Made by a program: the position numbers and the translations under genes. DNA of 63,458 bases, the filler included, from Atractiella rhizophila (taxonomy: Eukaryota): NCBI GenBank assembly GCA_021432655.1. It is 4 parts of 4 records of this genome, joined end to end, with 100 filler letters (N's around TTAATTAATTAA, not from the genome) between each part and the next. Parts side by side here need not be neighbours in the genome. Positions count along the whole stretch, not along the records: positions 1 to 30,676 come from MU271396.1; 3 more parts are not named here. The stretch is one strand, 5' to 3'. The stretch's first letter is position 1; every line of letters starts with the position of its first letter. The notes below the pieces were generated by a model that worked only from the letters and a program-made list of their open reading frames with translations, had not been told where the DNA came from and made no database searches. Below are positions 16,080 to 59,349 of this stretch, piece after piece.

Positions 16080-19000
16080 TCAAGAAGCTTTCCTCTCGTC
16101 CTTCCCACTCATACTCCTCGTCCTTGATAAGGGCTCTAGATTAGGCACGGCTGTGGGTATCGATAGAGTGTTGGCAGCACGAAATGAGGGCAGAGACCCA
16201 GGATCTCCGTGCTCTTCGGCTACCGACGAAAGATGGGATGGAGGAAGAGCAGAATGATGTCGAGGCGATGGGAGGGGAGAGAGAGCCGGAGATGTTGACA
16301 ATGACGAAGTTGAGGAGTGGATAGTGACGATATGAGGGAGCTCAACGGATTTCTTCTTCTTGTGTTGCCCCGTTAGACTGATGAATTCAAGGCTGCCGTT
16401 CGTCCGCGAGTGTCGGTCTTGACCTGTGGAACCGGACTCAATCCCTATCCCTATCCCGTTCCCCGTTCCTCCCTTCCCAACGTTCCCGCTCTGGTCCATC
16501 AACGCTGGGCGTGAGTCAAACAAACAGTCTTCATTTAAGGAGGTGACGAACCAGGTGAGAATGTCCGTCGTCCATTAGGACTGCGACCGTCAGACGGACC
16601 GAGCCAAGGCGAGTTGAGTGAAATGGGGGACGCTGCTCCGCTTGGACTCCCATCTGGATCGTATTGATCTAGAGCGGTGGTGCTTCTGCGCATCGACTTT
16701 CGAGCTGCCTGACGTCGCGAGGCTGTGGCGTTACTGAAGACTGGGAGAAGAAATCTGCCGAGACCATGAGCCCGAATACATCAGCAACTTGGGAAGGACA
16801 AACCGCTCGTCTAGGACAGTAAACCATTGCCCGTCACGCCAAACAGCGTTACCACCCATCGCAGGGTCAGCCCCTCCTTGGGGTAACACCTCATCCCCTG
16901 AATCCATGGAAGCGAGAGAGACGTCAGAATTCGACCTCGGCAAGCTTCGATGAGACTGTGCAGCCGCAGGATTGAGATGATCTGCGGTTTGAGTGGACTT
17001 TCTCCCCCCATACACTCCATCGTCCTTATATCCACGTTCGCGATCGCGATCGTCCACCATTCCATATCCTCCCTCCTGGAAATATCGCATGTCATCTTCA
17101 TCGTCACTGCTATCCTCCTCATCGACCACTCCTGTCCGCACGCCAACGACCTCAATCATCTTCATCGTCGTCCCTCCAAACACCATCATACTCAATACCA
17201 CATTCACAAGCACCGTCGTCCTCAAACTTTTCGCATGAGGTCCCTCAATGCCAGCAGCAAGAGCGACGTCGACAGCACCACGTAAGCCAGCCCAGAATAA
17301 CATCATCTGGTGCGCATGCGGGATCTCGGGTTGTGGCGTATGGTCATTGGCGTAAGGGAGAGCGCCAGACGAGGTCGCATGATGATGAGAGACGTTCGCA
17401 CCCAAAGCTTGATCTTTTGCGCGAAAGATCCAGTTGATGGCGTTGGACAGAGGGAAGACAGCACAATAGCGAGCCATGACGACAGCGACCTTTGAAAGGG
17501 TGTCAGCAGATGAATGTGACCCAGTGATGAATCTTACCGCAGTGACTGCTATGAAGAGCGGCTTATAAACTAAGTCGGTTTGTGTGAACAGTGTGAGGCC
17601 AAGGTAGATAAAGATGAAGTTCTCTGAAAGCTGCGAAAGAGTGTGGAAGATGTATTTCGTCGTCTTCTGCGTCTTGTGAGACATGTTGTGGTAGGCGTAA
17701 TGTTTTAGCGTGATACCACAGAAGAGTAGTGATACGATGCCTGCAAGAAGTGTGAGAACAAGTTTGAAGCTGAAACCGACAGAAAACTAACCGCTGACAT
17801 TGAGCGCATTGCTAAAGAAATAGCTGGTATAAGCGATGAGGAACACCAAACATGTTTCCGTATCTGGCCATTCGCCCAATCTGCACTCTCACGTTAGCGA
17901 CCACAACTTTAAGCCGAGATGGGGAAAGGGTACCTTGAATGCTTGAGCATCAAACTACATCCTAATCCAAACACAGCTCCAAGGAACATGGATATGGAGA
18001 ACACGAGCAAGAAGACGCCGACTCCGTGAATCACAGAATAAAGCGATGGTACCATGGTGTGAACGTGCTTCAGAGTTCTGCGATGTTGTCAGTCATAGAG
18101 ACAGAGGTACGAATAAGAGAGAACTCACTCGAACATGACGATGGCTACCGCATCATTGAGCAGAGACTCGCCAAATATGACGGAATAGAGTTTCGGTTCT
18201 ACCTTCAGAGCATTGAAGATTGCTAACGAAAGAGATGTTAGTATATGATTTCTGGCGTTTAAGCAGTTGAACACGGTTAGAGAATAGAAAGGCAATTTCA
18301 TTAGGGCAAAAGATAACCTCGGGTCATGGTCGCAAAAGCTGTGTTCAACTAGACTGAACCAGTTATTTTCAGTGACCCGTCAGAAACTTTGCCGGTATTG
18401 CAGCAATCAACTACCACCAGTCCTAATGTTTGCTGCCCCTGCGCCGGATTGGATAGCAGGGCTAGTCATGGTATGCTATCAACCCTCATCTGCCTTCGAA
18501 CAGCCTTCTGTCGTGGCGTAGGCTTTGCCTTTGTGCAAATGGTAACACGTTCATGCCACCCCTTCCGTTCTATTTGGACGCCTACAGAAAACAGTGCTCC
18601 ATGCTTCTCCATGGAAGCGAGGCAGGGAATACAACTCTCCAATGTCAATTGTCAACAGACTCAACAATAACTAGACTCCTTTCACGGATGCTAATCTGAT
18701 CTGGATGACCCTCCTAATTGGAGTTCTCCATGCAGAATGAAGAGAACAAAGCGAGACAAGTGAATGAGGCAGGAGCATATCCTCCGAGTATCTCTTCCTT
18801 GGCTGAGATACCTTCTCCTTTTGTCAGAAAAAGGAGGCACAACCAGGACGATCACTCCTTCCTCCTTTCACTGCGTGCTTTTCGAAGTCATACACCTTTC
18901 TTGGAACCCAAGCCTCTGCTCCTCTCTCTCCTCAGAATAGACACGCACCAAGAACAGTGACCGGATCCGTTGCACTCAAAGAACTTCCAAAAATCAAACA

Positions 19001-19596
19001 CTCGATGATACCCGGCTGGAGTCCTTCGAATCCCAGCTGAGACCAGAGGAAAACGACAAGACCGATGACCATCGCAGAGATGAAAGTCCCCTATCCCCAG
19101 CCAACAAGGTTAACGACTGCACTGTGAGTAAGGAAGGAGGTATGGAGGGACATACGACGAATGCGAAGCCCAATATGACTCCAAAGCTCCGGAAAAAGTG
19201 TCTTTGTTTCAAGTCGTACCCGCTGGATAAGATGATGGGCGGGAGAAGGACGTTCATCATGATGGTGTGTTTGAAAGAAACCATGGACTGGAGCCATGTC
19301 CCCGGACTGACTCTCAGCACGAGACCTACCACCATGCCCATGAGGAGGGCGATGATGGTTTCGTGGACGGTGCGTATGCGTCGGACGCGGAGGGTGTATG
19401 AAGTCCAGAAGGAGAGGATGAGTAAAAGGAGGACGAGGAGCAGGGCTATGTTTCCCATTTTCACTATGACTTTTGGCAACAAAGAAAGAAAGAAATACGC
19501 ACCGCGTGATGACCATAACTCTTCAGTCTCGGCGTCCATTGGCGGGAGGGTTGGGTTGTCAACTTCCTCCTCTGGATTGGGTAGATCGCGGTCCAT
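16080..19596 (-). CDS. NHX1: Endosomal Na+(K+)/H+ exchanger (multi-exon)
   Basis: VHETIIALLMGMVVG, VLLPPIILSSGYDL, FGSSLSATDPVTVL|AIFNALKVEPKLYSVIFGESLLNDAVAIVMF, LSENFIFIYLG, FWAGLRGAV. Confidence 0.95.
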
Positions 19597-20276
19597 ACTT
19601 CTGACCGTGGGCTGGTGCAAAGTCGTATCGTCCGTTAAAAATTCAATGTTAATTTAGGGGAGCTGTGCAGCAAAAAAAGAGGGAGCAGGGTTGCTGTGAC
19701 TGGTTGGATGGTGGAGGGTTGAAAAGGGTGTTGTCCTTATTTGCGTCTTGTTTGTTGGACTGGAACCGCCTTCCAAAGTTCTCACACTCTCCGGAACTTC
19801 TTCCAATTTACGAGGCGATATAAATATTTATTATTATCGTCACGTAGAGCGCCAAGTTATTGACGGGTTCTTCACACTTCTATCTTTCTTACTCGGTCGG
19901 GCATTGTCAGCACATTTACGTTTCTAGGCTGAATATGTTTATTTCTTTCAACAGGTCGTTCAATCCCTCCAAGCGAGACCCCGACCAACTTCATCCAGAG
20001 GGTTCTGGAAGAAGTTTATCATCGTAGCATTACATTATACTGTGCAAAAAGAGCATTATTTTGCATTAAAAAATATTGATTAACATCATAATGCAATGCG
20101 CCCAGTAACCTGTATATTATTTTCTCTGTGCTTCGTCTCCTCCGAGGGTTCCTTGTCAGCTTTTCCTTTCCTGTGTGGAAGTCTCGAACCGCTCGAATGG
20201 GAACTGTTCCCTGCGGCTTGCATACACTGGTCTTCCATCTCCTATCTTCCTTGTCATCCCTATTCAAACATTCCCC

Positions 20277-21240
20277 ATGGACGCGTATCTGCCAAACTTG
20301 ATTTACCTGACTCCACCGACACTACAATTGAAGGTTGCAACAATGGCACTCACCAAGTGGTCCTGACTCATATTTACGAGATAATATCGACTGAATCCGA
20401 CAACCCCAGAAACGAAACCGAAAACGACGTCGTCTGAATGTGTGACTGAGATCCTGAGTCGAGTCTACTGGTACGTCCACTTAACAAGCGGTCTCGCGGA
20501 GGGCAGGCGATTGTTCCATCCATGTTGTGGATGCTATTGGTTCAGTCCCCCGGTCTCCAACACCTCATATTCCCTTTTGACCGTCAGTCCATCGCCATCG
20601 AACGATTTGAGACCTTCCTTTCGACGGATCCACCTCCAACCCAGCAGCGATTCAGGAGCGGCAGCTCGGTATACAGTCGAGCGGAACATCTTCGTGTATA
20701 TGGCTCTGCCAAATCTCCTCCTCAGCAAGATCCAGAAGCTTGCGACGGTCTCCACGAACTCTCGCACTGTTGCAGGAACTCGAAGGATGCACAACGCGCG
20801 TCTCTTGATCTTGCTGGGATGAGAAGTTTTTTGCAAGTCCAGAGTTTAACTAACCAAGTTAAAAGGTTACCCACCTGAGAATTTTGTTCAACCTGAAAAA
20901 CTTCATCCTTCAGAGTTACGATCTCACTCTTACCCATCCTATCTCGATTTTTGGCAATAGCAAGACGTTACGTTTACCTCCACCACCATCCAGCGAAGAG
21001 CCTCACGTCCATCTGAATTATGAATTCGATTTCAACGACGGCGGAGCATGGGTGTTCCGGGGACATCTTCCAGGCACATAACCAACCTCATGCATGGGAT
21101 AGACGAGGAGAAAGAAGCGGTTACTTAGACTCGTAAAGGCTCCGTGTGGTCTTCCATCGCTGCCCCAACCGGTCCAAAAAAGGACAGTGTAGTCTTCGAA
21201 TCGGAGGGAGAGAATCTTCTATCAAATCCTCTATCTTAAC
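20277..21240 (+). pseudogene. Possible degraded F-box/LRR-like gene
   Basis: Protein-like, Leu-rich reading frames (LQHLIFP..., LFNLKNFILQSYDL) interrupted by stops and frame changes at the edge of the repeat block. Confidence 0.3.
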
Positions 21241-21399
21241 GTATGGTTGCTACAGTTTTCGCCCGCGGTACCTGGCCGAGTTTGTACCTTCCCAAGAAGG
21301 CGCACCCTAGGTTCAACGACTGCAACGCTAGGGTTACCTGGGACGATTTGGACGGCGCTCTAGTCTCTCTTACAGAGGTACGTCTAAGCAACGCTACTA

Positions 21400-24300
21400 A
21401 CATAGATCTCTAACACCTGACCGCCTGGTAGGCTGTGACGTTCACGTTCGTCACTCGGTACTCTACCTTGATCTACAACTCAAGGGTTTGTGTATGGCAG
21501 TACCGCAGATGCTCGTAGAATAGGGTGAAGTGTGGAAAGCGAAGTATAAGGAATGGTTGGAGTCGTCGTTAAAGCAGGGTTTCTTGGTAGGGCAAGGAAA
21601 CGCGTAACGAGAAGCAGTGGTGGCAGTGTTTAAAGAAGCCAGAGCACTCTCGGTCGGAGCTTAGGCTTCGCGTATTATGCAAGTTAGGGCTACGCTCACT
21701 TCTACCTTTCGAGTCAGGGCTGGAGCATGCCACAAGGTTGCACCCTCGCAGGTGGAACTGGACGTATGAGAGGATAACGGGTATAGGTGTTACTCCGGGC
21801 TAACGTCTTACTCTCTCTCTTTACAACGGAAGTGTCAAGAGAGCATACTAATGGGTTAGGTTCAGGGGGCCAAAGCACAAGCGTTCTCCTCTTCATTGCG
21901 GAAACTTTTAAAACCAGCCAGACTGCAACCGCATAACAACTTTACAAACTGCCTACCCTTCCTACTCGCTGGTCTCCCTTTATACTAGGCCTTGTAGACC
22001 AGTTCAGTTCCATTCGGTCTCACTTCTTAGGTCTTCGTCATGTTCAACTGACTTTTCATAAGTTTAACTGCTTGTCACTCAACAATACCAAAGTCTCCCT
22101 TTCGTGAAGTCATAGCCGAGAGTTGCGTTACGACGAAGTCTTACCACCCTCTTCTTTGTCGACGCACGCTTTGTTACAATTAAAAAGCGTCGTAACAGTG
22201 TATTCACCATTAATTAATAAAGCACCCCACCCTTACCACACTTCTATAGGGGTGGGGACGTTCCGTTTAGACACGCATGGAGAGCGAGGTTGTCGTGGTT
22301 TCTTTTATCGGAGTATAAAAGATTCGAGTAGTTCAGGAGGAAGCCCTTACATTATAGGAGAGAAGAATATTAAGAGTCTCCAGGTTAGTTTGAGAAAGGT
22401 GAGTTTTCTTTTAGGGAGCTGACGTCGTTGACGAAGATTGTGGAGTTAGGGCCGTGACTATTGAAGACCGGGTTAGGGTAGAGGTCCATATCTTCGCTAC
22501 GCTACATGAGCTCTGTATAACCACGACTAAACACGCACTCCTCTTACTCTACCGGTTCCAGCTAGCAGCGTTACTAACTAGCTCTGGGCTAACAGCCTCA
22601 ACACCTCTTGTAACGCGACAGCGCGCAGAAAGACGCGTTCGACTTGGCAACTGAAAACTATATAAAAATAAAAACTCCGCTAACTCAGAGCCATACGATC
22701 CTATCTCGTACCGAGTTCACAAGTTCGCGAGTTCATATTGCCTTCGTGTTAGTTTCTCACACAACACTATGGTACGTTAAGCTTAAAGTGTGAAGTAAGT
22801 TTCTAAAATAGTTGTTGGAGAAAATAATCGTCGGTCTCAGACCCGTTTCGAGGAGCGCCCTCATCGGTCCTAGAACAACGAAAGACGTTCTAGGCAAGGG
22901 GGTATCAGATACTTGAACGCAGTCACTAGCTAGAGTACTCTTATCAGCTCTTTGTCTGTAGGTTGGAGGGATTGCCGAGCTTTGTACCGCTGTTCCAAGC
23001 AACGATCGCGCTGCAAGACTACTGAGAACTGTTACGGTTTATTGTGAAGCAGACCGTAAAAGACCATTTGCTGAAAGAAAGGGCTTCGACAGTACGACGG
23101 ATTCAGGAGTTGAAACCTGAACCTTTATTCTTACATGGAAAGCGTTTGCGAAGACGATGGACACGGCCGCATTACATAGGACCTCGCCGCTTGTGGACAA
23201 ACTGAGGTAAGAGTTGTCGCCGTTGCTGTATAAAAGGTATCAGGAGACCCTACAGCTACTAACCTTCTCCGCACAGGCCTAGTTCCCACTTTCTTTCGTC
23301 TATCCTCGGTAGCAGAACGAACGCTCCCTACTCAGGTCTCTTCACCAACGACCGCATCGATGGTCCAACGTGTAGCTCCTGGCAGTAAAGACCCTAGCTA
23401 GATCGCATCAGGCAGTGAAGACGAAATCGTAGCTTCGACGCGTAGGTAGCAGTCGAACCCCTATCTTTTCGCCTCGTCTTTCTTTGAGTATGACCAGCTG
23501 AAAGTGTCAGGGAAAACACTCGAGAGGATCCAATCACTCCGGCCTGGTTTGCTTTCAGAAGTGCGGAAGTCGAAACCGTGGCAGGTGGACACGAAACGGA
23601 AGGCGTTTCACGAAATTCTCGCCATTCAGTTCTCGTGTGAGCTTGTAAGCTTTAAAATGGAAGAGCGCTTTTAAAAGCTGCAGTATTGGACTGTCACGTT
23701 GGCGCTTCTGCTTTAAACGCGGCCGTTTTCGTAGAGAACGAGGAAGTTCGCAAGGTTATAGCCGCCGCTGTTAAAGCGTAGGGAAACGTCGCTCTCGAAA
23801 CCGTCTGAGAAATCTTCCTAGTGCTCATTACCGAGACTGCGCCATCCGGCACCCTCTAACTCGCTCTCGAAACTAGTGACTCGGAGGAACGTAAGGTCAC
23901 CTTGGCTGCTGGCGCTTCTCACCCCGCCTACCTAGTAACGACTAACAGTATAGCTTCTCCTCATTTAGACCAGTCCCAAAGCTCACTGACATCTGATAAA
24001 AGCTACAATAACAACTCCACACTTAGCGAGCAGAGAGAAAATACGTGCCAACCATTGATGAGCGGCGGCTTCCTCGACTGCCCCGAATGCTCGGTTCAGC
24101 CTCCAGTAGCATCGACCGCCGGGGTCTGTGTCTTACGACTTACTTCACTTTCGAGCCCTTCCTGCCACTCACGGAAAGCTCACCTCTACCTACTTCAGGC
24201 ATAAGCCTCCACTTTCCCTTGAAGAAAGTAAAAGGAAGGTTTTGACGTCGCCACCAAGATGGATCTAACCGAAGTATCGTAGTGCATTCACTGTGGCTAT

Positions 24301-24620
24301 ACTTTCAAACCAGAGAACCAAAGGACGGTTAGAGAGGCCCTCTTTTTCTGCTCGGCCGCGTACCCGGTTGCTAGTTTCTTACGTCTGTTCGAAGAACAGT
24401 TTCTGTTAACGAAGCTGGACTTGGCCGTCTTAAGTTATAGGTTCAAGAAGGGTTAGCGCAACGGCTGAGCCTACACCTTCACATACGTCCATGCGGCCCT
24501 ACCAGCCCAGAGCATTAACACGGTGGCTGGGGCCTAACGTCCCGCCGCCCAATCTATACCTGCACTCCATAAAGATCGCGCCAACAAAGATAAGCTACTG
24601 TCGCTAACCTGGTTATAGAT
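21400..24620 (+). mobile_element. Heavily decayed non-LTR retrotransposon (LINE) remnant
   Basis: Collinear relics: gaaagggcttcgacagt (EKAFD-like, 23077), caggagaccct (QGDP-like, 23241), ctcttcaccaacgac (LFTND from LFADD by G>A, 23338), and a C-terminal CIHC...LFFC zinc-knuckle-like motif (24283-24351). Boundaries approximate. Confidence 0.5.
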
Positions 24621-25843
24621 AAGGAGATTCTAAGTACATAGCTAGGAATGGAGGTTAGGAATGGAGATTTTCGGTAGGAATGGATTCGGTAGACAAGAAC
24701 CGTACTCAGTATTTCGCGTGAAAACTCGTAAGTATGGAGGGAGTGGTCCGTATAACTTTGCTTTACTTAATGTGGTAGAATGACGTATACGAACGCGGAA
24801 AGACTTCGGCGCTCCTTTAAAATAAGACTTCCCCCATTTTTTTACGCAAAGTATGACCTGAGCTTGGGAGTGTTCTCAGTGTCATCCCAAGTTCCCCGAT
24901 AGGGAACGCTCATCCAACTGAACATGTAGAGTTTCAGACTCTCTTTCTCATGTGACCGTCACTGCTTTGTTCACGGTGAGTATACGTAAGGCGGAATAGC
25001 AGCAGGTGGAGGAAGGGATCTTGGTTCGGCGTTTGAGGACCGAAAACTCGCGCCTTTATCCCCGTTCTACCGCACCTGAGACTTTCGTGTTGTGTAACCG
25101 TTAACCATGTCTTAGTAAGACCAGGCGGTTTGGTTTGTCTCTCTGTGCACGGCTAAAAAACTCTAATGAAATATACTGCTCCACCACAAGGTATAAACCC
25201 ACTCGACTGCACCACCTGTGCTTTCTCTATTAAGTTAATAAGTGTGTAAAAGACGGTTAACGTCGGCTCCTCTGCCATCACTAAATATCAAACTATCTCT
25301 TCCTTCACCTTGTACTAGTTCGCCGTTTCGAAACCTACACCCGGTTGCTCGCTCATTAAGCGAGGCATCGCTCAGGAGGTTTCCTATTTCGACGGAGAAG
25401 TTTAAGACTTCGAGAACCGTGCGCAGGCCAGGTCGTGTCTGCACAAGATACAGTCGCCATACTTTCAGCTACTACCGCCCTCTTGGTAGACTAGAAGACT
25501 TCTACAACGTGCCTATATGCAGCGCCACGTTCTTCGGGTGCGCTACGTTACACTGATGCAAAAGGGTCTCAATGTAGGATAGTGTAGCATACAGTAATAT
25601 GCTCGGTTTCGTACCTACATTGAGTGAACAGTGAGAGTCCGTCGAACCTGTTTAAGAGGTGGAGGTAGGGGTGTAGAAGTTCCTCGTCTTTCATGTAGCC
25701 TATCGAAAAAGGGTCAACGGTCCGCGGTATACGAAGTCCTTGTTTCCTGTCCGGTATGGCTCGCTCCGCCGCTATCTGGCTATGAAGTACCTCGTACCAA
25801 ACAAACTCCGAAAGTAGTTTGCAGAAACGTTACTGACTGCGCC

Positions 25844-25868
25844 NNNNNNNNNNNNNNNNNNNNNNNNN
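25844..25868. other. Assembly gap
   Basis: N run. Confidence 1.
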
Positions 25869-25962
25869 CATCCAGTGTTCCATGTAGGTCTAATACGAAA
25901 AGTCAACGAAGACGACATCCCGGGCAGAGTCCAGTTGCCCAAACCGCCTCCGGAATTGGTGA

Positions 25963-26250
25963 ATGGAATTGAAGAATGGGAAGTGGAGAAAAATTGTCGA
26001 TGGAAAATGGTTCGGTACCCGAAATAGAGTTTTCAAATATCGCGTTCGATACAAAGGGTATTCACCATCTGAGGACGAGTGGATCAACATCGCAGATCTA
26101 GAAAATTCGCAGGACGCTATAAAAGACTATCACACTGCACACCCTCTCGCAGTTCGTCCCGATTCCATACCGAACTCCGCAAAAAATCGCCCAAATGCGC
26201 GTTTTCGTAACCTTCGACGAAAACACGCTGAAGGGTCTTCCTCACTTTAA
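25963..26250 (+). CDS. Chromodomain at the C-terminus of retrotransposon Pol/integrase (partial)
   Basis: (EW/VE)KIVDGKW...FKYRVRYKGYSPSEDEWINIADLENSQDAIKDYH; the frame looks broken just upstream, next to the gap. Confidence 0.85.
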   Translation: MELKNGKWRKIVDGKWFGTRNRVFKYRVRYKGYSPSEDEWINIADLENSQDAIKDYHTAHPLAVRPDSIPNSAKNRPNARFRNLRRKHAEGSSSL

Positions 26251-26599
26251 GGGGTCCAACACCCCTATATGCCTTGCCGGGTGAAATCCTAGTCTTTGAG
26301 ACTTAGGTCAAGGGCAAGGCGCCGACTTGCTCCTCAACGGGCAAGTCGGCGACTTGGTCGTTGGTGAGTCCATTCGTCGCCCGTCAAAGACGAATGCTCA
26401 TTGCGTTCTCGCACCATCACCAATGTCGCATTTACGAAAATTGCCCTCAATCGCGAGGTCCCCTCCCCCTCACTTTAAGAGGTCCTACTCCTCTACATGC
26501 CTCGCTGGGTGAATCCCTAGTCACATTGTTGAACATAGGTCTAGGCGAGGCGCCGGTCTGTTCCTCAACGGACAGATCGGCGACCGGTTTGTTGGTGAG
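26241..26599 (+). ncRNA. Two tandem ~130-nt structured RNA elements in the retrotransposon 3' UTR (26241-26368, 26469-26599)
   Basis: Same stems in both copies with compensatory changes, e.g. GGGG/CCCC vs GAGG/CCTC and GCCTTGCC/GGCAAGGC vs GCCTCGCT/GGCGAGGC. Confidence 0.65.
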
Positions 26600-26907
26600 T
26601 TGTCCAGCCCGTTTTCGCAGAATGGACACTTATTACACCAAAAACAACACCTGGTCAACTTCGAAAAATTCCTCAAATTGCGAGGTGCACAATGTCTCTT
26701 TGCTCCAACAATTTCATCTCTGCCCGCAGCGGCAACTGGTACTTCAGGCACTTTTCGCAAAATTGGCAAACCTTACGAAGCAGAAGTTTCTGCTTACTGC
26801 AAGCACCACAGAAACTGGGGGGTGTTGTCAGGTTTGCATCTTACGCAAATCGGCGCCCGTTCGCCGGATTGCGTCTCCTATCGCCCATTTGCGTTCCCTG
26901 CGAATCG

Positions 26908-27135
26908 GTCGCCACTGCGCGTCGCCACTGCGTCTGCGCCACTCTCCCGTCGCCCACTGCGTCTCCCGTCGCCACTGCGTCTCCCGTCGCCACTGCGTCT
27001 CCCGTCGCCACTGCGTCTCCCGTCGCCACTGCGTCTCCCGTCGCCACTGCGTCTCCCGTCGCCACTGCGTCTCCCGTCGCCACTGCGTCTCCCGTCGCCA
27101 CTGCGTCTCCCGTCGCCACTGCGTCTCCCGTCGCC
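26908..27135 (+). repeat. 18-bp tandem minisatellite (GTCGCCACTGCGTCTCCC)n inside the left LTR, ~10 near-perfect copies plus degenerate flanks
   Basis: Read directly; it generates the repetitive RRHCVS/PSPLRL/ASPVAT ORFs. Confidence 0.97.
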
Positions 27136-27431
27136 TATTTGCACGCAGTGCAAATCGGCGCCCGTTCGCCCGTTCGCCCATTTGCGCCTACATCACCACT
27201 TAGCCCAATTGTGCCTATCCTCCTCTTATTAACTCCGCGTAATCCCACTGTCACTTCCCCTTCTAGTTCTCTCACATGTTTCATCTGCTCTCCTCTACGC
27301 TCTGTGGCAGTGTTATTCCGCTTGTATATATAGATCAGAGAGTAGTGGAGGTGACCTCAGAGTATTCTCTTAGGTTCAAGGCGCCATGTGTTAGGGCTAA
27401 CACTATGTGCGGTCGCCGATAGGCGATGCGT

Positions 27432-27504
27432 CTGTAGTGGAGGTAAACCTAAGAGATAGTATGGCATGAGAAGACTAACCTGTAGTGGAGGTAAACCTAA
27501 GAGA
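27432..27504. repeat. 25-bp direct repeat CTGTAGTGGAGGTAAACCTAAGAGA in the right LTR
   Basis: Copies at 27432-27456 and 27480-27504. Confidence 0.9.
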
Positions 27505-28001
27505 ATACTCTGAGGTCACCACCACTACATCTCGATGTATATATACATATTTAAAAGCACTGCCATAAACTGTAACATACGATTCTTGAAACATGTAAGA
27601 TAGCTAGATCAGGAAAGCAACAAAGGGAATACTCGGAAATAAGGCATGTTGAACAGTACAAGTGAGAAAGGATAATAAGGCAATAATGGAGACGGTGCAG
27701 ACCGGCGAAATGTATAAGGTTTGCTGAGCGGCGATTCGTGTAAGATAGGGAAAGCGGCGATCAGCGCGTACGTGAGCAAAGCGGCGATGGGGGGGCACGT
27801 GATCCCATAACGTCGTGAAGTAGGTCACGTGACTTCGTGTGGTGCATTTCAATAATGCGTAGGGGCAAGCCTGACAACACCCCCAAATTTCTGACTAGTG
27901 TACGTGAGTCACGGAATTTTTTAAGGTTAAGGTTTGCGCTTGGTTGGGGCGAAATTTTTCCCAATTTTTCCACCATCACCTTCCCTTCTTTTCCTGCAAA
28001 A

Positions 28002-29498
28002 ATGTCTACCGACGCGCAACTCTTCGACTTCGTTTTGGCGAACAAAGATAGAAAGGAAACCACAGTTTACTGGGATGTGGAGAAGGCGAAAGAGGTAAAT
28101 TTTGGCCGATTCGCCGATGTGTTGGAGTGGGGTAGAAGGTGCTATCCTTTGTACATCAAATTTTGTGATGAGGTACAGGCAGAGGTGAGTTTCCTGTCTC
28201 GTATGATGCGGTTGAGCGTGTGTGGTAACTTGTCGGCGATGGAAAAGGTGCGATCGGTTTATGAAACAGCAAAAGGGTTTGGTGATGGGCGCAATTTGTC
28301 GTTTCCGCTGCGGATGTCTGTGGAAGACATGCAGGTCTTGCGGGATGAACTTCGGCTCTGGGTCGAACAAGCGGCGCTCGTCGCGGAGGAAGCGGCGAAA
28401 TTCGGTTTTCAGCCTTCTGAATCGGCGAATGGGGACCCTATTTTGCGAAAGAAGGAACAGGAACTTTTCCTGTCTGACACGAAAAAGCGTCTGGCTAAAG
28501 AGGAGGAGGAGCGAAAACGGGCGGCGCTTGAAAGTAGGCGTCGAGCGGCGGAGGAGAATTTGCGTGCTCAGAAATCGGGTGCAGCGGCAAAAGGACCCGA
28601 GGTTGGGGTAGTGAGGGCGTTATCCGATTATCTGGTGACTGCGACTAATTTTATTTTATCCTCGGCTTTGGGGGATCGAAACCCGTTCGCTGGTGCGCCG
28701 GTCGCCGAATTTGTTGTGCGTGACGGAAAAATTCAAATCGGCGAAAAGGAATTAGATGCGTCGAAATATCGGTACTTCTGGCCAGGTACTCGCGAGGCCT
28801 ATTCTCATGCTGCGGCAAACATCAATCTGGGTGAGCTAGAACTCGAATTGGTCATCACGACTCCCCGTGCAAATCCGCGTATTCTTCCCACATTGGCGAG
28901 TATCGGGACGCAGCGATGTAGCAATTGTACTGGCAAAGTTCGTGCGGCGCCTGTCAAAGCAGCGAAAAAGAAAGCCAAGGGCGACAACGACTCCCAGGTG
29001 TGCGACTTTTCTGCTGGGCATGTCGCAACTGCGTTCGGTCGTGTCTGCTCGCGCTGTCACAATTCCCGCAAAAGATGCGAGGTTTTGCCCTTGGGGTATC
29101 TGCGAGAGCTTTCGATGTTGGTCGTATTGTCGACTACGTTCCATCCTAAACGTGTCGGCGACGGGAAAAAACGACCTTCGGCTTTGGTCGAGAGCAACTA
29201 CGAGAATATTTCGGACGCCGACGAGGGATCCCCCGCACAATCGATGTTGAGCGCCGCTCGGTTGTACTCTGAAGCATTTAGCCTGGATTTTGCGCAAACT
29301 ATGCTCGCGGCCGCTAGGTTAAATGCACAAGCGGCGGCGGACGCTCTTAAGGCCGCCAAATTGCAAATGGAGTTGTACAAGAGGAGGCAGGATGATCGTG
29401 CCGCTGAGGATGGGGCTAGCGAGGGTTCTGTGGTGGAAGGTGTGATCGCCGACGTGACCGGTAGGGTAAGTTCATCCATTTTTCGGCGATCCGTCTGA
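28002..29498 (+). CDS. Intronless 498-aa retrotransposon antisense ORF: coiled coil plus atypical Zn(II)2Cys6 cluster
   Basis: ATG in AAAATG context at 28002; charged coiled coil (KKRLAKEEEERKRAALESRRRAAEE); C-x2-C-x24-C-x14-C-x2-C-x6-C at 28917-29078. Confidence 0.75.
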   Translation: MSTDAQLFDFVLANKDRKETTVYWDVEKAKEVNFGRFADVLEWGRRCYPLYIKFCDEVQAEVSFLSRMMRLSVCGNLSAMEKVRSVYETAKGFGDGRNLSFPLRMSVEDMQVLRDELRLWVEQAALVAEEAAKFGFQPSESANGDPILRKKEQELFLSDTKKRLAKEEEERKRAALESRRRAAEENLRAQKSGAAAKGPEVGVVRALSDYLVTATNFILSSALGDRNPFAGAPVAEFVVRDGKIQIGEKELDASKYRYFWPGTREAYSHAAANINLGELELELVITTPRANPRILPTLASIGTQRCSNCTGKVRAAPVKAAKKKAKGDNDSQVCDFSAGHVATAFGRVCSRCHNSRKRCEVLPLGYLRELSMLVVLSTTFHPKRVGDGKKRPSALVESNYENISDADEGSPAQSMLSAARLYSEAFSLDFAQTMLAAARLNAQAAADALKAAKLQMELYKRRQDDRAAEDGASEGSVVEGVIADVTGRVSSSIFRRSV

Positions 29499-30206
29499 CT
29501 ATCTAGATGTTGTGTAGGCATCGTAGGGCACCTGACCCATCGCCAGCTGCAGAAAATGCGTCGTATCGGCGAAATTGAGTTTCGACTAGGCGACTTAAAC
29601 CCTTCGTTGGCCCAGGAGGCCTATGATAATTCCAATTATGATGCCTATTCTGTTTCTTCTTCGAGCAGTAGCGATAGTGAGGAGTCCGTCCAGAGTGGTG
29701 ATTTTGATCTCTGAAATGTATGCGTTTCGCGTCTCCGTATTAGCGTCGAATTGCCGGGCGGCGACAGGTGTAAAATTGTCGTAGTGGCAAAGGAACACGT
29801 AGTGAGTGGGGAGAACAATGGCAAATAGGGTGCTGCAGGACTCACACTCCCCTGTCTAGGGGAGGACCCTCAGGCGTTCCTCCCACTAGCTACCCAAGCT
29901 TATTTTGGAGCTCGCAACCAAACAGGCCTGGGCCACGCGCTCGTGGACACAACGCGCGGTATAACGGGTCGGCGATTCGCGTGCACGTCGCCGGTCTGCC
30001 TTCTGCGTGGAAGAATGTGTTGTCGAGCGAACAAGCATGGGGAAGCAAAGGTAAAAGCAAAAATAGGAAACAATAATCATCAAAACCAGAACAGAGTGTA
30101 GCATAAGGGGAAGCAGTTGTGTACCTCGCAATCGAGGGATTTTTTGAGATTTGACCGGTATTGTTTTGGTGTAGTAAGCAACTGTTTGTGAAAATGGGGC
30201 GAGTAA

Positions 30207-30564
30207 CGCACCGACAAACCGGTCGCCGATCTGTCTGTTGAGGAACAGACCGGCGCCTCGCTTAGACCTATGTTCAACAATGTGACTAGGGATTCACCCA
30301 GCGAGGCATGTAGAGGAGTAGGACCTCTTAAAGTGAGGGGGAGGGGACCTCGCGATTGAGGGCAATTTTCGTGAATGCGACATTGGTGATGGTGCGAGAA
30401 CGCAATGAGCATTCGTCTTTGATGGGCGACGAATGGACTCACCAACGACCAAGTCGCCGACTTGTCCGTTGAGGAACAAGTCGGCGCCTTGCCTTGACCT
30501 AAGTATCAAAGACTAGGATTTCACCCGGCAAGGCATATAGGGGTGTTGGACCCCTTAAAGTGAG
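30207..30564 (-). ncRNA. Two tandem structured RNA elements in the 3' UTR of the right element (30438-30564, 30207-30337)
   Basis: Reverse-complement homologues of 26241-26599 with further pairing-preserving changes (GCTC/GGGC -> GTTC/GGAC; GCT/GGC -> GCT/AGC). Confidence 0.65.
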
Positions 30565-30676
30565 GAAGACCCTCCAGCGCGTTTTCGTCGAAGGTTACGG
30601 AAACGCGTATTTGGGCGATTTTTGGCGGAGTTCGGTATGGAATCGGGACGAACTGCGAGAGGGTGTGCAGTGTGAT

Positions 30677-30776
30677 NNNNNNNNNNNNNNNNNNNNNNNN
30701 NNNNNNNNNNNNNNNNNNNNTTAATTAATTAANNNNNNNNNNNNNNNNNNNNNNNNNNNNNNNNNNNNNNNNNNNN
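30677..30776. other. Assembly gap with TTAATTAATTAA spacer
   Basis: N run with an all-frame stop linker at 30721-30732. Confidence 1.
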
Positions 30777-33410: not shown

Positions 33411-33510
33411 NNNNNNNNNNNNNNNNNNNNNNNNNNNNNNNNNNNNNNNNNNNNTTAATTAATTAANNNNNNNNNNNNNNNNNNNNNNNNNNNNNNNNNN
33501 NNNNNNNNNN
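33411..33510. other. Assembly gap with TTAATTAATTAA spacer
   Basis: N run with linker at 33455-33466. Confidence 1.
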
Positions 33511-36500
33511 CCCTCCCTTGATCATCCTGTAGTTGGTTCATCCATTAGCTCGAGCCGCCAAGGAAGAAAATCATGACATTGCTGTCGCCGCGTATGGCGC
33601 TCTATTGGCTTTCGGTAGAGACAGCGGACCAGTGTTCCTTCACTTCTCTCCAATAGTTGAGGCAGTAAGTTCATTCAGTCATGCAGATTCATGGCCCATT
33701 TCTAGCTAGCTGCTCGAGGATTCTTCACCGTACATCCGAGCCAGATTCCAAGATCAGTTTCAGCAGATAATGGATCGCCTTCTATCGGGCGAAACATGTC
33801 GAGATTTAAGGTATGACTGTCCACACCTTTCTCACTCAGTCTGACGGCGTCGGTAGACCCCCCGTACCTATCTCAACCAGTTGGGAAGTGGACGCCCCCA
33901 CATTGCGAATGCCTATAGATCAAAAGGTTTTTCAGAGCATATTGGAGCTGAGCGATCGAGCTCGAAGCGGTGACTGGAAAGATTGGCTCAAACAGCTATC
34001 TTCCCATCTCTTGAAAACGTCGCCCTCTCCTGTATGTTGGATTGAGGTTGCTTTCTTTTACTCTTTTTTGAGTCTGATCTATAGGCTCTACGTGCATGTG
34101 CCAATGTCACAGACACCTACCATCCCTTCTTTATGGATCTTCTCAACGCAGCCTACCTTTCCGTTTGGAGAGAGTTGAGCCCTCCTGATCAGGTGAGATT
34201 GATCGCGCCAAGGCGGATGATGATAACCTATCTGTGTTCAGATCGCAACGGCGGGGGTGATTGAAGCCGCGCTCACAGCTCCCTCTATCCCTCCTCAGAT
34301 CGTCCAATCACTTCTGAACCTTGCTTTTCATATGGAACATTACCTCGAACAGGCAACGGCTGAGGACCGTCGAGCTGGTAGTAATCCTGGTTCTACCCCC
34401 CGGCCGGCATATCAGGCTCTTTTTATCGATTTCAAGATTCTTGGAGCGTCCGCTCAACAATGCACTTCGTGGGCAAAAGCCTTACATTACAAAGAGCTCG
34501 AATTGAAGGAACAACCAACGGCTCAGATAATTCAAGATCTCATTCGCATCAACAACGAGCTTCACCACGACGACGCTAACCAAGGCATTTTGACGTATCT
34601 GCCTTCTGATGCGAGCGGGCCACTGCCAGAGACTTATTTTGAAAAGCTTGGGCAGTGGGACCAGGCGTTATCCCTGTACAACCAGAAGTTGCGTGATAAA
34701 CCGGATTCGTTCAGTGGGAATTTGGGCAAAATGCGCGCCTTGCATGCTCTAGGACACTGGGAAGAATTGTCAACATTGGCTGAGGGTATCTGGAAACTCG
34801 CAACGCTCGACATGAAGAGACGCATTGCTCCTCTCGCAGCCGATGCAGCTTGGTCATTACTTCAGTACGATCACATATCAAAATATGTTAGCGTTTTGAG
34901 ATCGGACAGTCCTAATCGCGCCTGGCTCAAGGCGATTGTGCATGTCCAGAAAGGTCAATACGATCAAGCTGAACGACAAATCTCGAAAGCAAGGGATCTT
35001 CTTATATCGGAACTGCACACTATGTTGGGGGAGAGCTACAGCCGTGCTTATAGGTAATGCATCCGTGTCCAGTGGTTTGGAGAAGCTCACCGGTTTCAAA
35101 GTGCTATTGTTCGAGTGCAGTTCCTCTCTGAAATTGAAGAGATTATCATGTATCAGAAAGCATTCAAGCATCACCACTTTGATAGAATGGAAGAGATGAA
35201 TCAGATTTGGAACAAGAGGTGCGTTTGAGATCGTTGTCATCCTCTAGATTACCAATGATGGATATAGATTGCTCGGTTGCGAGCGTGACGTGGATATATG
35301 GCAGCGTGCTCTCAAGTTGCGAGCTGTCGTTCTAGGTCGCGCAGGACCGCAGGATATTACGATCAAGTACGCAAACTTGTGTCGGAAGGCTGGTCGATAC
35401 ACCTTAGCGGCCAAAGCATTGGAACCTTTTCACATAAACTCTGGGGTTCGCATTTGGTCATGCTCGCGCTCCTTCTAATTCCAGTTTAGCCATTCCCATT
35501 CCCTCCCGACGTACAATATGCTCGACTTAAGTTAACGTGGGCGCAAGGCGATCGAATCAGCGCTTTTAAAGGCATGCAGAACGTTGTACAACGCCTCGAG
35601 GAAGAACGGCTTGCAGACCAAGGTCGCCCATCAAAAAGTCGGGACAAGCTCCTGAGTCGCTGCCATCTGAAGGTTGGAATGTGGACCAATTTTCTGCGGG
35701 ACAATCAAGTCGTGCGTCACCGAGACTATCCTTTCATACCCCAACTCAAACTGTTCCACCGCAGAGCCTGAATATGCCGGACCCTCTAGATTCCTTCTGG
35801 TTGGCTACCCGCTTCGATGCCTGTTGGCCGAAGGCTTGGCATCAATGGGCCCTCATCAATGCAGATATCGTTGCTTCGTTTGAGAAAGAGAGCGACGGAG
35901 TTCTTAATGCTGAGACCTTCGTGAACGTTGTTGCAGCTGTACAAGGTAGGTCTTATCCGGACTCTGACAAGTACTGACAGATAGTAATTCAAAGGGTTTT
36001 TTCTGGCGCTCCAATACGCGAAGGGCAGCACCTTGCAGTATTCTCTTCGGTTGCTCACCCTGTGCTTCAAATTTGGGAACCGCCCAGAAGTAATCAATAC
36101 CATCAAGGATCACATGGATCATGTTAGTCAAGAAACCTGGCTCCTCGTCATTCCTCAGGTAGGCTTTTATATTGCGTTCCATCGAGGGCTCAGATTGTTG
36201 GTAGCTACTGTCCCGCATCGATGTAAAAGACACGCCAGTTCAGTCATTTGTCCAAACGATCATCGTCAGACTGGGACTGGAGCACCCTCAAAGCTTGGTC
36301 TACCCGTTCGTGTTTTGATTGTGTGGGTGATTTGAAGGTAACTCTATCAAAGTTTGACTGTCGCGGCGAACTCATCGAACGAAAATCGAAAGCGTGCTGC
36401 TCGAGAGCTTTCAAACCAGATAAGGACTGTGTACCCACATCTCGTCGACCAGGTATGCAGATTGAACCACCTCTTTCCGCCTTGAAACCCATACGTTCTT

Positions 36501-38695
36501 GCAGGCGGCAACAGTGGCGAAAGAGCTCATTCGGGTATCAGTGGTGTGGCACGAACAATGGGAAATGGGCCTCATTGAGGCGTCTCGGCTCGACAAAGAG
36601 CATAATGAAGGTGCAATGTTTGAAACCTTGGATAAGCTCCATAACATGATCAAGAGGGTAAGCTTTGGTCGGTGCAACACGCAGCTCTAACCAACAAATG
36701 AAACAGGGACCAGAAACAGAGATGGAGAAGCAGTTTTCAGATCATTACCTGCGACATTTGAACAAGGCGAAAGAGTACATTGATCGCTTCCGTCTCAGCG
36801 CCGATCCCGCTGATCTCAATAAAGGCTGGGATGCCTACGTACCTGTAGGTGGATACTACTCTTGGGTAATTACTCACGAATGAACGAACTAGATCCTCCA
36901 ACGCATCTCGCATGAGAATAAGCGGCTACAAAAACTGGAACTTGACCGCGCAGCCCCTGCCTTGCTCGCCCTTCAAAACCAACAAATTGAAGTTGCTGTT
37001 CCTGGTAGGCAGTGCTCTTTCAGTCCGATTCTAATGACTTGACGAACATGTGCAGGTACTTACCAAACGGGAAAGCCCATCGTTTCGATCGTCAACTTTT
37101 CCCAAGTTCTCGACGTCTTCAACTCGAAACATCGGCCGAGGAAGCTTATCATCAAGGGAAGTGATGGGCACGATTACGCTTTCTTGCTCAAAGGTATGTC
37201 ATCCGTCACGTGAGATGAGTCCCAACCTGTGAACACACGGAGGCAGGACACGAGGACCTGAGGCAGGATGAGCGAGTGATGCAACTTATCGATCTTGTCA
37301 AGTGGGTTTTTCTTTTTCATGCCTCAGGCCCAGTCCTGATAACCAGGTAGCCCTCTTCTTTTGCGCGACGCTGATTCTTCTAAGCGACATCTCACTGTCA
37401 AAAAGTATCCAATCGTCCCACTTTCAGCTCACTCCGGCTTGATAGGCTGGGTCGAAAACACGGATACATTACATGGGATGATTTTAAAGCATAGACAAAT
37501 GAAAAAGGTTGCGGTCAACTTAGAACATCAACTCATGCTGACGGTTGGTATTATCCTTTTCGAGATCTGTGTCATCTCATGGACGGCATAGATGTCTGGT
37601 GGCGAGTATGACTTGTTGACGCTCATGCAAAAGATCGAGGTGTTCGAATTCGCTCTGATCAACACAGCCGATGCAGCAGACGATTTAGGTCAGGCTATGT
37701 GGCTTCGTTCGCCTTCAGCCATGTATTGGTTCATAAAACGCTGCAACTATGTCCGAAGTGTGGCCACGATGAGCATGATAGGCTATATTCTCGGTTTGGG
37801 TGACAGGCATCCTCTCAATATTCTTATGGAGCGTGGTACTGGGCGGGTCGTACATATCGATTTGGGTGATTGTTGGGAGGTGGCAATGCACAGAGAGGTT
37901 CGTCCGCTTTGTTTGCGAGGGTGACGCACTTAGCAATGAGTGCAGAGGTATCCCGAAAAAGTCCCTTTCCGTCTGACCAGGATGATCGTTGGGGCGATGG
38001 AGGCTAGCGGAACAGAAGGCACATTCAAGAGTTCGTCACTAATCCCTTCCACTCATGGTACTCTAAATGTCGTCACAGTCAGCTGCAACATTGTCATGAA
38101 AATCTTGCGAGATTATCGAGAATCGATTGAAGCGGTGATGGAGGCTTTTCTCGTAGACCCGCTTGTGAATTGGAAACTTGTCGCTCGTTAGTCAGCTCTT
38201 CAATCTATGAGCCTTGGCTGAAGGAAATTAGACGAATATGATCGAGCCCCACCAAATTTTCCTGGCGCAGCGACAATGGAAGAACGCGAGCTGTCATCTG
38301 TTTTCTCGCCTGGCAGGCATCCCTCAGATAGACCGCGGATAGATGAGAATCATGAACATGACGGTCCGTTTCCTGGAGTCTAAGTCATCCGCTGACAAGC
38401 AATGATAGCCGGGACAATCAATATTAAAGCCCAGGAAGTGATCAATCGTATTACGGACAAACTTACAGGTTTGCCCTTCCTGCCTCTTTCTCGAAAAAAA
38501 TTCGACATTGATTACTTTACTTTTAGGGCGTGATTTCAAAACTTCCCACAGTTTGACCGTCGAAGAGCAGGTACAAAAATTGATCGAGCAGGCGGTGAGC
38601 TATGAGCATCTCTGTCAGTGCTTCCTCGGCTGGTGCCCATTTTGTAGGTTTCACCCTGCACCTTGATCCAAAATGACTCTGGGTATGTAGGGTAA
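33511..38695 (+). CDS. TOR: TOR-family PIKK kinase (FAT-FRB-kinase-FATC), divergent; N-terminus in the gap
   Basis: [85 protein letters not shown]. Confidence 0.93.
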
Positions 38696-59249: not shown

Positions 59250-59349
59250 NNNNNNNNNNNNNNNNNNNNNNNNNNNNNNNNNNNNNNNNNNNNTTAATTA
59301 ATTAANNNNNNNNNNNNNNNNNNNNNNNNNNNNNNNNNNNNNNNNNNNN
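59250..59349. other. Assembly gap with TTAATTAATTAA spacer
   Basis: N run with linker at 59294-59305. Confidence 1.

Follow-up and report, generated by a model that had tools for sequence, protein, structure and literature searches.

A candidate antisense accessory gene in the 3' internal region of an LTR retrotransposon subfamily from an Atractiella-like basidiomycete

To our knowledge, antisense accessory genes occur widely among LTR retrotransposons, and none has an established function. Trans-regulators encoded by an element or virus include Tas of foamy viruses and VANC of plants. [quoted passage not shown] Retand is classed as a non-chromovirus in PMC11963269. A fungal case is Boty (BcGypsy1) of Botrytis cinerea and Sclerotinia, a Ty3/gypsy element with the antisense gene brtn (PMC7264820 and PMC8365987, citing Zhao et al. 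2011, Virology 417:248), and the HTLV antisense promoter (HBZ, 3' LTR) is mentioned in PMC7264820. Our literature search found no paper on Atractiella retrotransposons, except for one incidental listing, and no paper on a zinc-cluster gene inside a fungal LTR element.

An antisense ORF between pol and the 3' LTR is a layout already known from the plant elements and from Botrytis Boty, and is not new. Here we describe such an ORF in the window, which is the whole 63,458-nucleotide stretch of Atractiella rhizophila DNA that was analyzed. Two related elements meet at this locus, E1 on the plus strand and E2, the carrier of the ORF, on the minus strand. We consider it fairly probable that the ORF is a genuine antisense accessory gene in the 3' internal region of one LTR-element subfamily of an Atractiella-like basidiomycete, the element itself probably being a Ty3/gypsy chromovirus.

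Element 3' ends flanking the ORF

Table 1. Coordinates of E1, E2, and ORF features in the window
Feature	Position	Strand	Remarks
E1 pol C-terminal tail with chromodomain	25963..26250	+	stop at 26248-26250
E1 segment A (pol end and 3' UTR)	26129..26692	+	inverted repeat of 30117-30676
E1 polypurine tract (PPT)	26810..26822	+	agaaactgggggg; 117 bp past segment A
E1 3' LTR	26823..27388	+	starts TGTTGTCAGG; truncated at 27388 by end of E2 LTR
E2 3' LTR	27389..27879	-	491 bp; 5'-TGTTGTCAGG...CCCTAACA-3' on minus strand
U3 repeat block	27703..27831	.	four (A)GCGGCGAT-type units, CGGCGA in each, CGTG core after each
E2 PPT	27880..27892	-	agaaatttggggg on minus strand; inverted match to E1 PPT and LTR start
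Antisense ORF (P0001)	28002-29498	+	498 codons, uninterrupted frame
Six-Cys cluster	28917..29078	+	aa 306-359, C-x2-C-x24-C-x14-C-x2-C-x6-C
E2 segment A (pol tail and 3' UTR)	30117..30676	-	stops at contig end

The ORF is carried by an LTR element, based on the PPT and TGTTGTCAGG LTR start, the heterogeneous flanks at the LTR end, and the pol tail with chromodomain in a 93%-identical sister segment. The E2 LTR has ends of the TG...CA type and its PPT abuts the 3' LTR, as in LTR retrotransposons. An earlier note on this DNA had placed the ORF, in antisense orientation, between the 3' UTR and the PPT and 3' LTR of a minus-strand element; the coordinates agree, with the pol tail and 3' UTR running from 30676 to 30117 and the PPT and LTR from 27892 to 27389. 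The LTR edge lies 3 bp from the 27876 given there, and the LTR/PPT geometry holds.

Segment A of E2 contains the last 39 pol codons and their stop (30674 to 30555, stop at 30555-30557, minus strand), followed by the 3' UTR, where hairpins lie at 30440-30494 and 30209-30264. It matches segment A of E1 over a 565-bp alignment at 93.1% identity, and the E1 hairpins (26312-26366 and 26541-26596) have folding energies of -33.1 and -28.4 kcal/mol (z, -5.3 and -3.6). An Rfam scan of 20000-30676 (E<=0.1) gave no match. The E1 pol tail, which begins just downstream of a scaffold gap of 25 N at 25844-25868, matches the Pfam Chromo domain (PF00385, E=1.6e-7, above the gathering score), and a search with this tail against longer proteins gave no relative. 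For E2, the contig has only the last 39 codons of pol, with the DNA within the segment 93% identical to that of E1, and E2 is termed a probable chromovirus from the 565-bp match to the E1 tail.

An intact chromoviral element is not supported: the contig ends at 30676, cutting E2 and leaving its 3' end only (the linker at 30677-30776 reads N44-TTAATTAATTAA-N44). No gag, protease, reverse transcriptase, RNase H, or integrase was found in any window ORF of at least 110 aa, which we attribute to this contig end, that is, to missing sequence and not to absence from the element.

Between segment A and the PPT, E2 has 2,224 bp and E1 only 117 bp, so the 2.2-kb ORF module is present in E2, absent in E1, and optional between these two related elements. 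The PPT and LTR start of the two elements give an inverted match of 39 bp at 84.6% (26809-26847 versus 27893-27856). The E1 LTR has an 18-nt tandem array (10.7 units, 26943-27135). It also has a TATA region near 27325, and this TATA/R region (27225-27376) matches 27643-27494 in inverted orientation at 72.8%. The inverted repeats initially suggested a DNA transposon with long terminal inverted repeats, an idea dropped because of the chromodomain, the PPT and LTR starts on both sides, and the heterogeneous flanks at 27389. We also rejected 27389-27879 as the 5' LTR of a plus-strand element because the PPT is on the opposite strand, no primer-binding site of the TGG-type form follows 27879, and the TATA/R region is inverted relative to E1.

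Frame, relatives, and copies of the ORF

The ORF was described in the earlier note as an open, intronless 498-codon frame starting about 125 bp outside the LTR. The frame is indeed open, within a stop-to-stop frame of 559 codons at 27819-29498, and its ATG lies 122 bp outside the LTR edge. The description as intronless is doubtful: there is a probable in-frame intron at 28185-28247 (63 nt, GTGAGT...AG), skipped in gene models P0005 and P0006, and a second probable intron with a GTAAGT donor at 29466, ahead of the stop codon. Beyond this donor, the frame stays open to 29714 and encodes a Ser/Asp/Glu-rich tail. In gene model P0004, the first exons map to 27686-27718 and 27748-27804, within U3. 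The minus-strand (element-sense) ORFs beneath the gene (27930-28619, 28839-29318, and 29201-29620) had no match in a Pfam search.

The ORF appears to be a real protein-coding gene, judging from its 559-codon frame, its relatives, and the mostly synonymous differences among copies. Six relatives, all hypothetical proteins, share 55 to 86% identity with its product, and the four with a source name all come from A. rhizophila. By phmmer against 1.84 billion representatives we found three close relatives and no others, and a word-indexed search with the whole protein and with aa 215-375 returned the same four Atractiella proteins and nothing else. Among the sequences searched, the family is confined to one organism. 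No match was found in NCBIfam, two metagenome scans (with the ORF protein and with alignment A2) gave no relative, and a PDB sequence search returned coiled-coil-type noise only (best E=0.005, a phycobilisome linker). Most database relatives are truncated or chimeric, one of them (P0007) with a weak DUF4218 match. The family is now labeled "hypothetical protein" and should be recognized as transposon-borne.

Other copies were found in contigs from public runs, of which 1906 and 2963 pieces were placed on a 3.5-kb stretch; the runs are possibly the window's own source and hence not independent. The earlier expectation of a multicopy sequence, as opposed to a single-copy host gene, is supported, as at single positions of the ORF the alternative letter is found in 12 to 19 distinct contigs per run. 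At the LTR end (27388/27389), loose contig ends disagree (agreement, 0.37 to 0.44; 10 + 18 in X1, 26 in X2, and 1 in X4), and differing flanks in 28 contigs of X1 and 26 of X2 are those of dispersed copies, with the same proviso on the source of the runs. The ORF-LTR junction recurs in diverged copies, in line with the linkage proposed before: one contig of 921 nt, at about 13% divergence, spans 27866-28188 and 28295-28790, and another contig of that sample also spans 27866-28188. Summed contig depth, which the tool warns is no copy number, was about 1.2 to 7k for the ORF, about 4.6 to 39k for segment A, and up to 378k for the LTR core; taken at face value, this places the gene in a minority of element copies.

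A gene of this kind could also be a passenger, a fragment of a host gene or of another transposable element captured at the DNA level, amplified, and now decaying without a role. The absence of the module from E1, its apparently lower abundance than that of flanking element parts (a rough measure), the retained introns, and the truncated or chimeric state of most relatives would all fit. However, searches of 1.84 billion representatives and of 5.8 billion clusters gave neither a host-like nor a foreign homologue, and the long open frame is kept in the window copy and in P0004 despite about 13 to 25% divergence among copies. Selection across copies, raised in the earlier note, could be addressed to the extent of a hint: of 629 differences between the window and other copies, 10 of the best-supported 40 fall in ORF exons, and 7 of these 10 are synonymous and 3 are not, at sites picked by the tool's ranking. 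We consider a passenger unlikely.

Cysteine cluster, U3 repeats, and possible function

If the ORF is a genuine accessory gene, it would retain two spliceosomal introns through retrotransposition, presumably because they are antisense to the genomic RNA of the element and so are not removed. Transcription would start in the 122-bp spacer beside the U3 edge, and the U3 repeat block, with its GCGGCGAT units and CGTG/CACGTG boxes 100 to 300 bp upstream of the ATG, may serve as a two-way upstream activating region. The predicted product is Lys/Arg-rich and probably nuclear, combining a coiled coil with a six-Cys, probably metal-binding module. It may act on expression or chromatin of its own element, as the poorly understood aORFs of Grande, RIRE2, Retand, and Boty may do.

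The periodic CGGCGA motifs and two CACGTG boxes reported for the LTR are present. CGGCGA occurs at 27703, 27729, 27755, and 27782 (spacing, 26/26/27 bp) and CACGTG at 27796 (previously about 27797) and 27826, and Tandem Repeats Finder (TRF) detects a period-27 repeat at 27751-27802. The number of U3 units differs among copies, as joints in run contigs skip 24, 81, 94, and 243 bp. Over the plus strand of 27389-30676, CGGCGA is the top over-represented 6-mer (13 observed versus 1.58 expected, a first-order Markov mean), and 1,000 simulations gave at most 7. The array is present, but the motif is not confined to the LTR and is enriched beyond it too: there are seven plus- and three minus-strand copies in the ORF region (28002-29714) and two and one in the downstream spacer (29715-30116).

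The spacing of the cysteines and the coiled coil noted earlier were also found, the latter as a long helix at aa 146-194 (AlphaFold2 pLDDT, 72 to 84) that is compatible with a coiled coil. The complete six-Cys pattern is present in two of the seven family members (P0001 and P0004). Canonical Zn(II)2Cys6 clusters have the spacing C-x2-C-x6-C-x5-12-C-x2-C-x6-8-C, and two of the five spacings of P0001 fall outside this range (24 and 14 residues versus 6 and 5 to 12). The Pfam profile Zn_clus (PF00172) matches none of the seven members at E<=10, with no match for P0001 at E<=1 or for an 87-aa Cys piece at E<=10. Structure prediction of the cluster, suggested in the earlier note, was carried out, with low confidence (mean pLDDT, 47.0 for the Cys piece alone and, from an alignment of 7 rows, 39.5 for the full-length protein). 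The earlier label is unsupported; the product is not demonstrably a Gal4-type Zn2Cys6 protein.

The product might be an element-encoded, sequence-specific DNA-binding factor, built of a coiled-coil dimerizer and a divergent six-Cys zinc module, that recognizes GCGGCGAT and drives or protects transcription from a two-way U3 promoter. This motif is in about 8-fold excess over U3, the ORF module, and the hairpin stems of the 3' UTR. We regard this reading as improbable. If it were true, the swap of U3 arrays between ORF-bearing and ORF-less relatives would represent coevolution of factor and site.

The proposal of the earlier note, a Tas- or VANC-like product with a Gal4-type Zn(II)2Cys6 cluster that binds CGGCGA of its own LTR and activates or de-silences the element, seems quite improbable to us. 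It draws on the six cysteines with their C-x2-C-x6-C second half, the Lys-rich first loop (KAAKKKAK) beyond the first C-x2-C, the CGGCGA excess, and the different U3 array of ORF-less E1 (one CGGCGA in 26693-27388 versus five in the E2 LTR). A cluster named "Zn(2)-C6 fungal-type" is also among the weak ESM Atlas neighbors, at 0.79; DUF3716-bearing clusters score 0.76 to 0.84 and the best scores are 0.81 and 0.87, all below the lead threshold of 0.9. Against it stand the missing profile match, the aberrant loops, and the position of the cluster, which is C-terminal to the coiled coil, not N-terminal. The U3 repeat units contain no CGG-Nx-CCG pairs, CGGCGA is found in several frames across the coding sequence and is partly due to Ala-Ala codons (GCG-GCG), and tandem U3 repeats upstream of the LTR TATA are ordinary enhancers of sense transcription. 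At the CxxC knuckles, the low-confidence Cys-piece model has beta hairpins instead of helices, a weak hint in the same direction.

Alternatively, the antisense RNA itself could be the functional product, acting as dsRNA or siRNA against the element 3' end or by transcriptional interference, with the ORF incidental. The gene does overlap the element 3' region on the opposite strand, and possible regulatory roles of antisense transcripts from LTR elements are among the topics discussed in PMC7264820. A 498-codon frame conserved as protein, with a synonymous excess, is unexpected for a noncoding RNA, and we judge this explanation very improbable. An assembly artefact, with the contig being chimeric or palindromic and its ends inverted over 565 bp, is barely credible: the right arm stops exactly at the contig end and the left arm starts 260 bp after the 25-N gap, but there is a 7% difference between the arms, mirror symmetry is lacking in the inner parts (117 versus 2,224 bp, and LTRs alike at about 73% over 152 bp only), and both diverged contigs and the P0004 model have the LTR-ORF junction.

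Comparison with known systems

As a compact fungal example, an antisense accessory gene in this element would be more tractable than those of maize or rice, given the ORF-less sister, the repeated motif, the putative metal-binding domain, and the apparently retained introns. It would also show why spliceosomal introns can persist in antisense cargo across retrotransposition.

With the plant aORFs of this position (aORF-3R), as they are described in the literature consulted, the ORF shares its site between pol and the 3' LTR, its antisense orientation, and its lack of similarity to known proteins. The plant carriers are described as non-chromovirus elements, whereas here the pol tail is of the chromodomain type and the host is a basidiomycete. 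The module is apparently found in a subset of copies, in contrast to the plant aORFs, which are said to occur in most, and it has a six-Cys cluster and probable introns; this comparison is by description, not by sequence. Boty, compared likewise by description, is also fungal and Ty3/gypsy and has an additional antisense gene, brtn, but belongs to an ascomycete.

With the Gal4-type cluster (PF00172), the product shares the number of cysteines, one C-x2-C-x6-C half, basic residues after the first C-x2-C, and a coiled coil; it differs in a loop of 24 instead of 6 residues, a linker of 14, a reversed domain order, and the lack of a profile match. The likeness to foamy-virus Tas, HTLV HBZ, and plant VANC is in concept only, HBZ being the one described as antisense from the 3' LTR.

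Tail-to-tail arrangement of two LTR elements

The region of the antisense ORF is flanked by an inverted repeat of 565 bp (26129-26692 versus 30676-30117, 93% identity), which holds the end of pol and the 3' UTR and is here called segment A. At its left side, the plus strand codes for the C-terminal end of pol, which includes a chromodomain (stop at 26248-26250; Pfam PF00385, E=1.6e-7), and the minus-strand copy has the same tail, with 39 codons and a stop (30674 to 30555). A second inverted match (26809-26847 versus 27893-27856, 85%) has on each side a polypurine tract (PPT) and then TGTTGTCAGG, and a third (27225-27376 versus 27643-27494, 73%) spans a TATA-containing stretch. Since segment A, the PPT/LTR start, and the TATA stretch are all inverted, the region comprises two LTR elements placed tail to tail, E1 and E2. 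A 2,224-bp segment of E2 contains the ORF on the opposite strand, a module that E1 lacks. This is the geometry described in the earlier note, a minus-strand element with an antisense ORF between the 3' UTR and the PPT/LTR, and it was right to within 3 bp.

Features of the window by position
Feature	Strand	Position	Remarks
E1	+	PPT 26810-26822; LTR from 26823	Order: chromodomain, segment A, 117 bp, PPT, LTR
E2	-	pol tail and segment A 30676->30117; 2,224-bp segment 30116->27893; PPT 27892->27880; LTR 27879->27389	In this order
Antisense ORF	+	28002-29498	498 codons
E1 U3 tandem array		26943-27135	18-nt unit TCTCCCGTCGCCACTGCG, 10.7 copies, 99% matches
21-bp direct repeat		26845-26865, 27150-27170	Brackets the 18-nt array of E1
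Segment A hairpins, E1	+	26312-26366, 26541-26596
Segment A hairpins, E2	-	30440-30494, 30209-30264
TOR-like gene		34227-37921	FAT + PI3_PI4_kinase (Pfam); separate contig from ORF
MOR2/PAG1 gene		45037-51433	Separate contig from ORF
Host gene fragments	+	9404-9787, 15006-15809, 53356-54958	Ordinary (Pfam)
Host gene fragments	-	3951-5680, 7711-8172, 10403-11248, 16734-19653, 42316-43132	Ordinary (Pfam)
Tandem duplication		52648-52775	64 bp, 2 copies, 98% identity
Scaffold gap		25844-25868	25 N
Linkers		30677-30776, 33411-33510, 59250-59349	N44-TTAATTAATTAA-N44; contig joins

The LTR of E2 ends at 27388/27389, where contigs from public sequencing runs diverge into mutually unlike sequence (28 in X1, 26 in X2, and 1 in X4) and consensus agreement falls to 0.37-0.44. 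Such flanks typify the edge of a dispersed repeat, and with the LTR end fixed here, E2 appears to have inserted into the 3' LTR of E1. Contigs of X1 and X2 also join 27389 to 30285 and 30607, so that the LTR end meets the interior of segment A in other copies; insertion into related elements is thus a repeated event in this family, and E2 appears to be a case of it. The contig carrying the ORF stops at 30676, and no gag, RT, or integrase was found in any window ORF of at least 110 aa. By the near-identity of its tail to that of E1, E2 may be termed chromoviral.

Each copy of segment A holds two hairpins (-26 to -33 kcal/mol, z -3.6 to -5.3), whose stems of 13-15 bp enclose a loop of the UCCUCAAC type, and paired stem changes separate the two (ACUUGC/GCAAGU versus GUCUGU/ACAGAU). 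They had no Rfam match and may represent a conserved RNA structure in the retrotransposon 3' UTR.

Because the window is several contigs joined, genes across a linker are not physically linked, and the TOR-like and MOR2/PAG1 genes are thus not neighbors of the antisense ORF. From first to last along the window, the eight host gene fragments matched sugar transporter, glutaredoxin, EF-hand, FRG1-like, DHHA2, Na/H exchanger, polysaccharide deacetylase, and armadillo-repeat (importin-alpha-like) families. The ~6 kb before the scaffold gap (19700-25843) held zero ORFs of at least 150 aa, zero Pfam matches among 12 plus-strand ORFs tested, and no likeness to E1 or E2 by sequence comparison; it may be a degenerate repeat or non-coding sequence.

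The antisense gene, its product, and its relatives

The ORF is probably an accessory gene that one subfamily of an LTR retrotransposon carries in antisense orientation, and it is restricted to a single lineage. Its frame is open throughout, as claimed, and begins, stop to stop, at 27819. The start codon at 28002 is supported by the N terminus MSTD(A/T)QLFDF, common to all seven family members except P0004 (upstream extension) and P0009 (truncated). The gene had been described as intronless, and two features speak against this. An in-frame segment of 63 nt (28185-28247) starts with GTGAGT, ends with AG, and is left out of the P0005 and P0006 gene models; it is a probable intron, and in both runs the ORF has its lowest depth in the bin 28202-28319, which covers most of this segment. 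Shortly before the stop, a GTAAGT donor at 29466 is followed by CTGAC-type branch sites, with the same frame open to 29714, and an intron of 81 or 87 nt here would append a Ser/Asp/Glu-rich tail. Introns of antisense cargo would be expected to outlast retrotransposition, because the genomic RNA of the element is the other strand. GC skew on the ORF sense strand is strong at 28001-29000 (+0.22), well over most of the window.

The claimed pattern C-x2-C-x24-C-x14-C-x2-C-x6-C is present at residues 306-359 (28917-29078), and the claimed coiled coil fits a helix at residues 146-194 (pLDDT 72-84), the only confidently modeled part of the protein; the AlphaFold2 models as a whole were unusable (mean pLDDT 39.5 and 47.0). 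The Gal4-type (Zn2Cys6) label is unsupported. Pfam Zn_clus matched neither the whole product nor, at E<=10, the isolated Cys piece or any of the seven family members. Two of the Cys spacings fall outside the canonical Zn2Cys6 pattern, and the cluster lies C-terminal to the coiled coil instead of preceding it. Language-model neighbors of the protein were all under the lead threshold. The Cys domain is best described as a module of six Cys that probably binds metal, with no assigned fold.

Only six relatives were found in a search of 5.8 billion clusters and 1.84 billion representatives: four in the clusters, all Atractiella rhizophila "hypothetical proteins" (55-79% identity, BLASTP), and three among the representatives (83-86% identity), one being common to both sets. 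Contig pieces matching 27140-30676 (3.5 kb, at least 80% likeness) numbered 1906 in X1 and 2963 in X2, runs of one sample that is possibly the window's own source. Per run, 12-19 distinct contigs had a non-window letter at single ORF positions (17 and 19 at 29453). The link of ORF to LTR is seen again in further copies: one contig of 921 nt, at ~13% differences, spans 27866-28188 and 28295-28790, and the first exons of the P0004 model map in U3 (27686-27718, 27748-27804). Among the best-supported 40 of 629 differences, 12 fell in the ORF, including 2 within the probable intron; the 10 exon differences were synonymous in seven cases and non-synonymous in three. These counts, from a small, tool-selected sample, are a hint that the window copy's lineage has been under purifying selection.

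Several observations argue against a core function for the ORF in the element. Its summed depth (~1.2-7k), a figure that is not a copy number, is several-fold below that of segment A (~4.6-39k) and far below that of the LTR core (up to 378k). E1 does without the module, all six Cys are kept in only two of the seven family members, and one member, P0007, is a chimera with an N terminus from this family. The P0007 tail (residues 284-358) matches DUF4218 below threshold (E=3.3e-4, 20.9 bits versus a cut-off of 27) and is probably a neighboring or nested DNA-transposon fragment.

The CGGCGA motif

The CGGCGA copies claimed for the LTR were found at 27703, 27729, 27755, and 27782, and the CACGTG boxes at 27796 and 27826. 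In register, the four units read (A)GCGGCGAT, with a CGTG core within a few bases after, and Tandem Repeats Finder gave a period of 27 nt at 27751-27802. The motif is real and striking, and it occurs outside the LTR as well. In 27389-30676, no 6-mer is more over-represented than CGGCGA: the plus strand has 13 occurrences, whereas the Markov mean is 1.58 and none of 1000 simulations exceeded 7. E2's four motif-holding parts have 3.6-10 copies per kb versus 0.3-0.5 per kb in the remaining window, and the 122-bp PPT-ATG spacer has none. Positions 28002-29714 hold seven on the plus and three on the minus strand, in different frames, some stemming from Ala-Ala GCG-GCG codons, and the motif forms the 3' arm of both strong hairpins in each segment A copy. 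CGGCGA/TCGGCGA is ~8-fold enriched over the whole 3' part of E2, coding frames included, not the LTR alone.

The array lies 150-330 bp upstream of the LTR TATA (near 27540-27551, minus strand), and its unit number differs among copies, with contig joints that skip 24, 81, 94, and 243 bp. On the plain reading, it is an ordinary U3 enhancer block of variable unit number. It may serve both directions, since the array also precedes the ORF ATG by 100-300 bp. The earlier note suggested that the ORF product may bind the LTR and act on its own element. In keeping with such self-regulation, the ORF-less E1 has another U3 array (18 nt x 10.7) and a single CGGCGA in 26693-27388, a comparison of one element on each side; we consider the mechanism very unlikely. 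The observations of that note largely stood, and its interpretation held in geometry only.

Antisense genes in known elements

Apart from one incidental listing, a literature search of limited scope turned up nothing published about retrotransposons of Atractiella, and nothing about fungal LTR elements that carry a zinc-cluster gene. The layout itself, an antisense gene between pol and the 3' LTR, is already known. Passages of a review describe antisense additional ORFs at this place in maize Grande, rice RIRE2, Silene Retand, and Phaseolus PvRetro13, note that Grande gene23 has a promoter of its own and that its product is nuclear, and raise a regulatory protein as well as dsRNA as possible roles (PMC7264820). 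A non-plant case in the passages concerned is Boty of Botrytis and Sclerotinia, with the antisense gene brtn (PMC7264820, PMC8365987).
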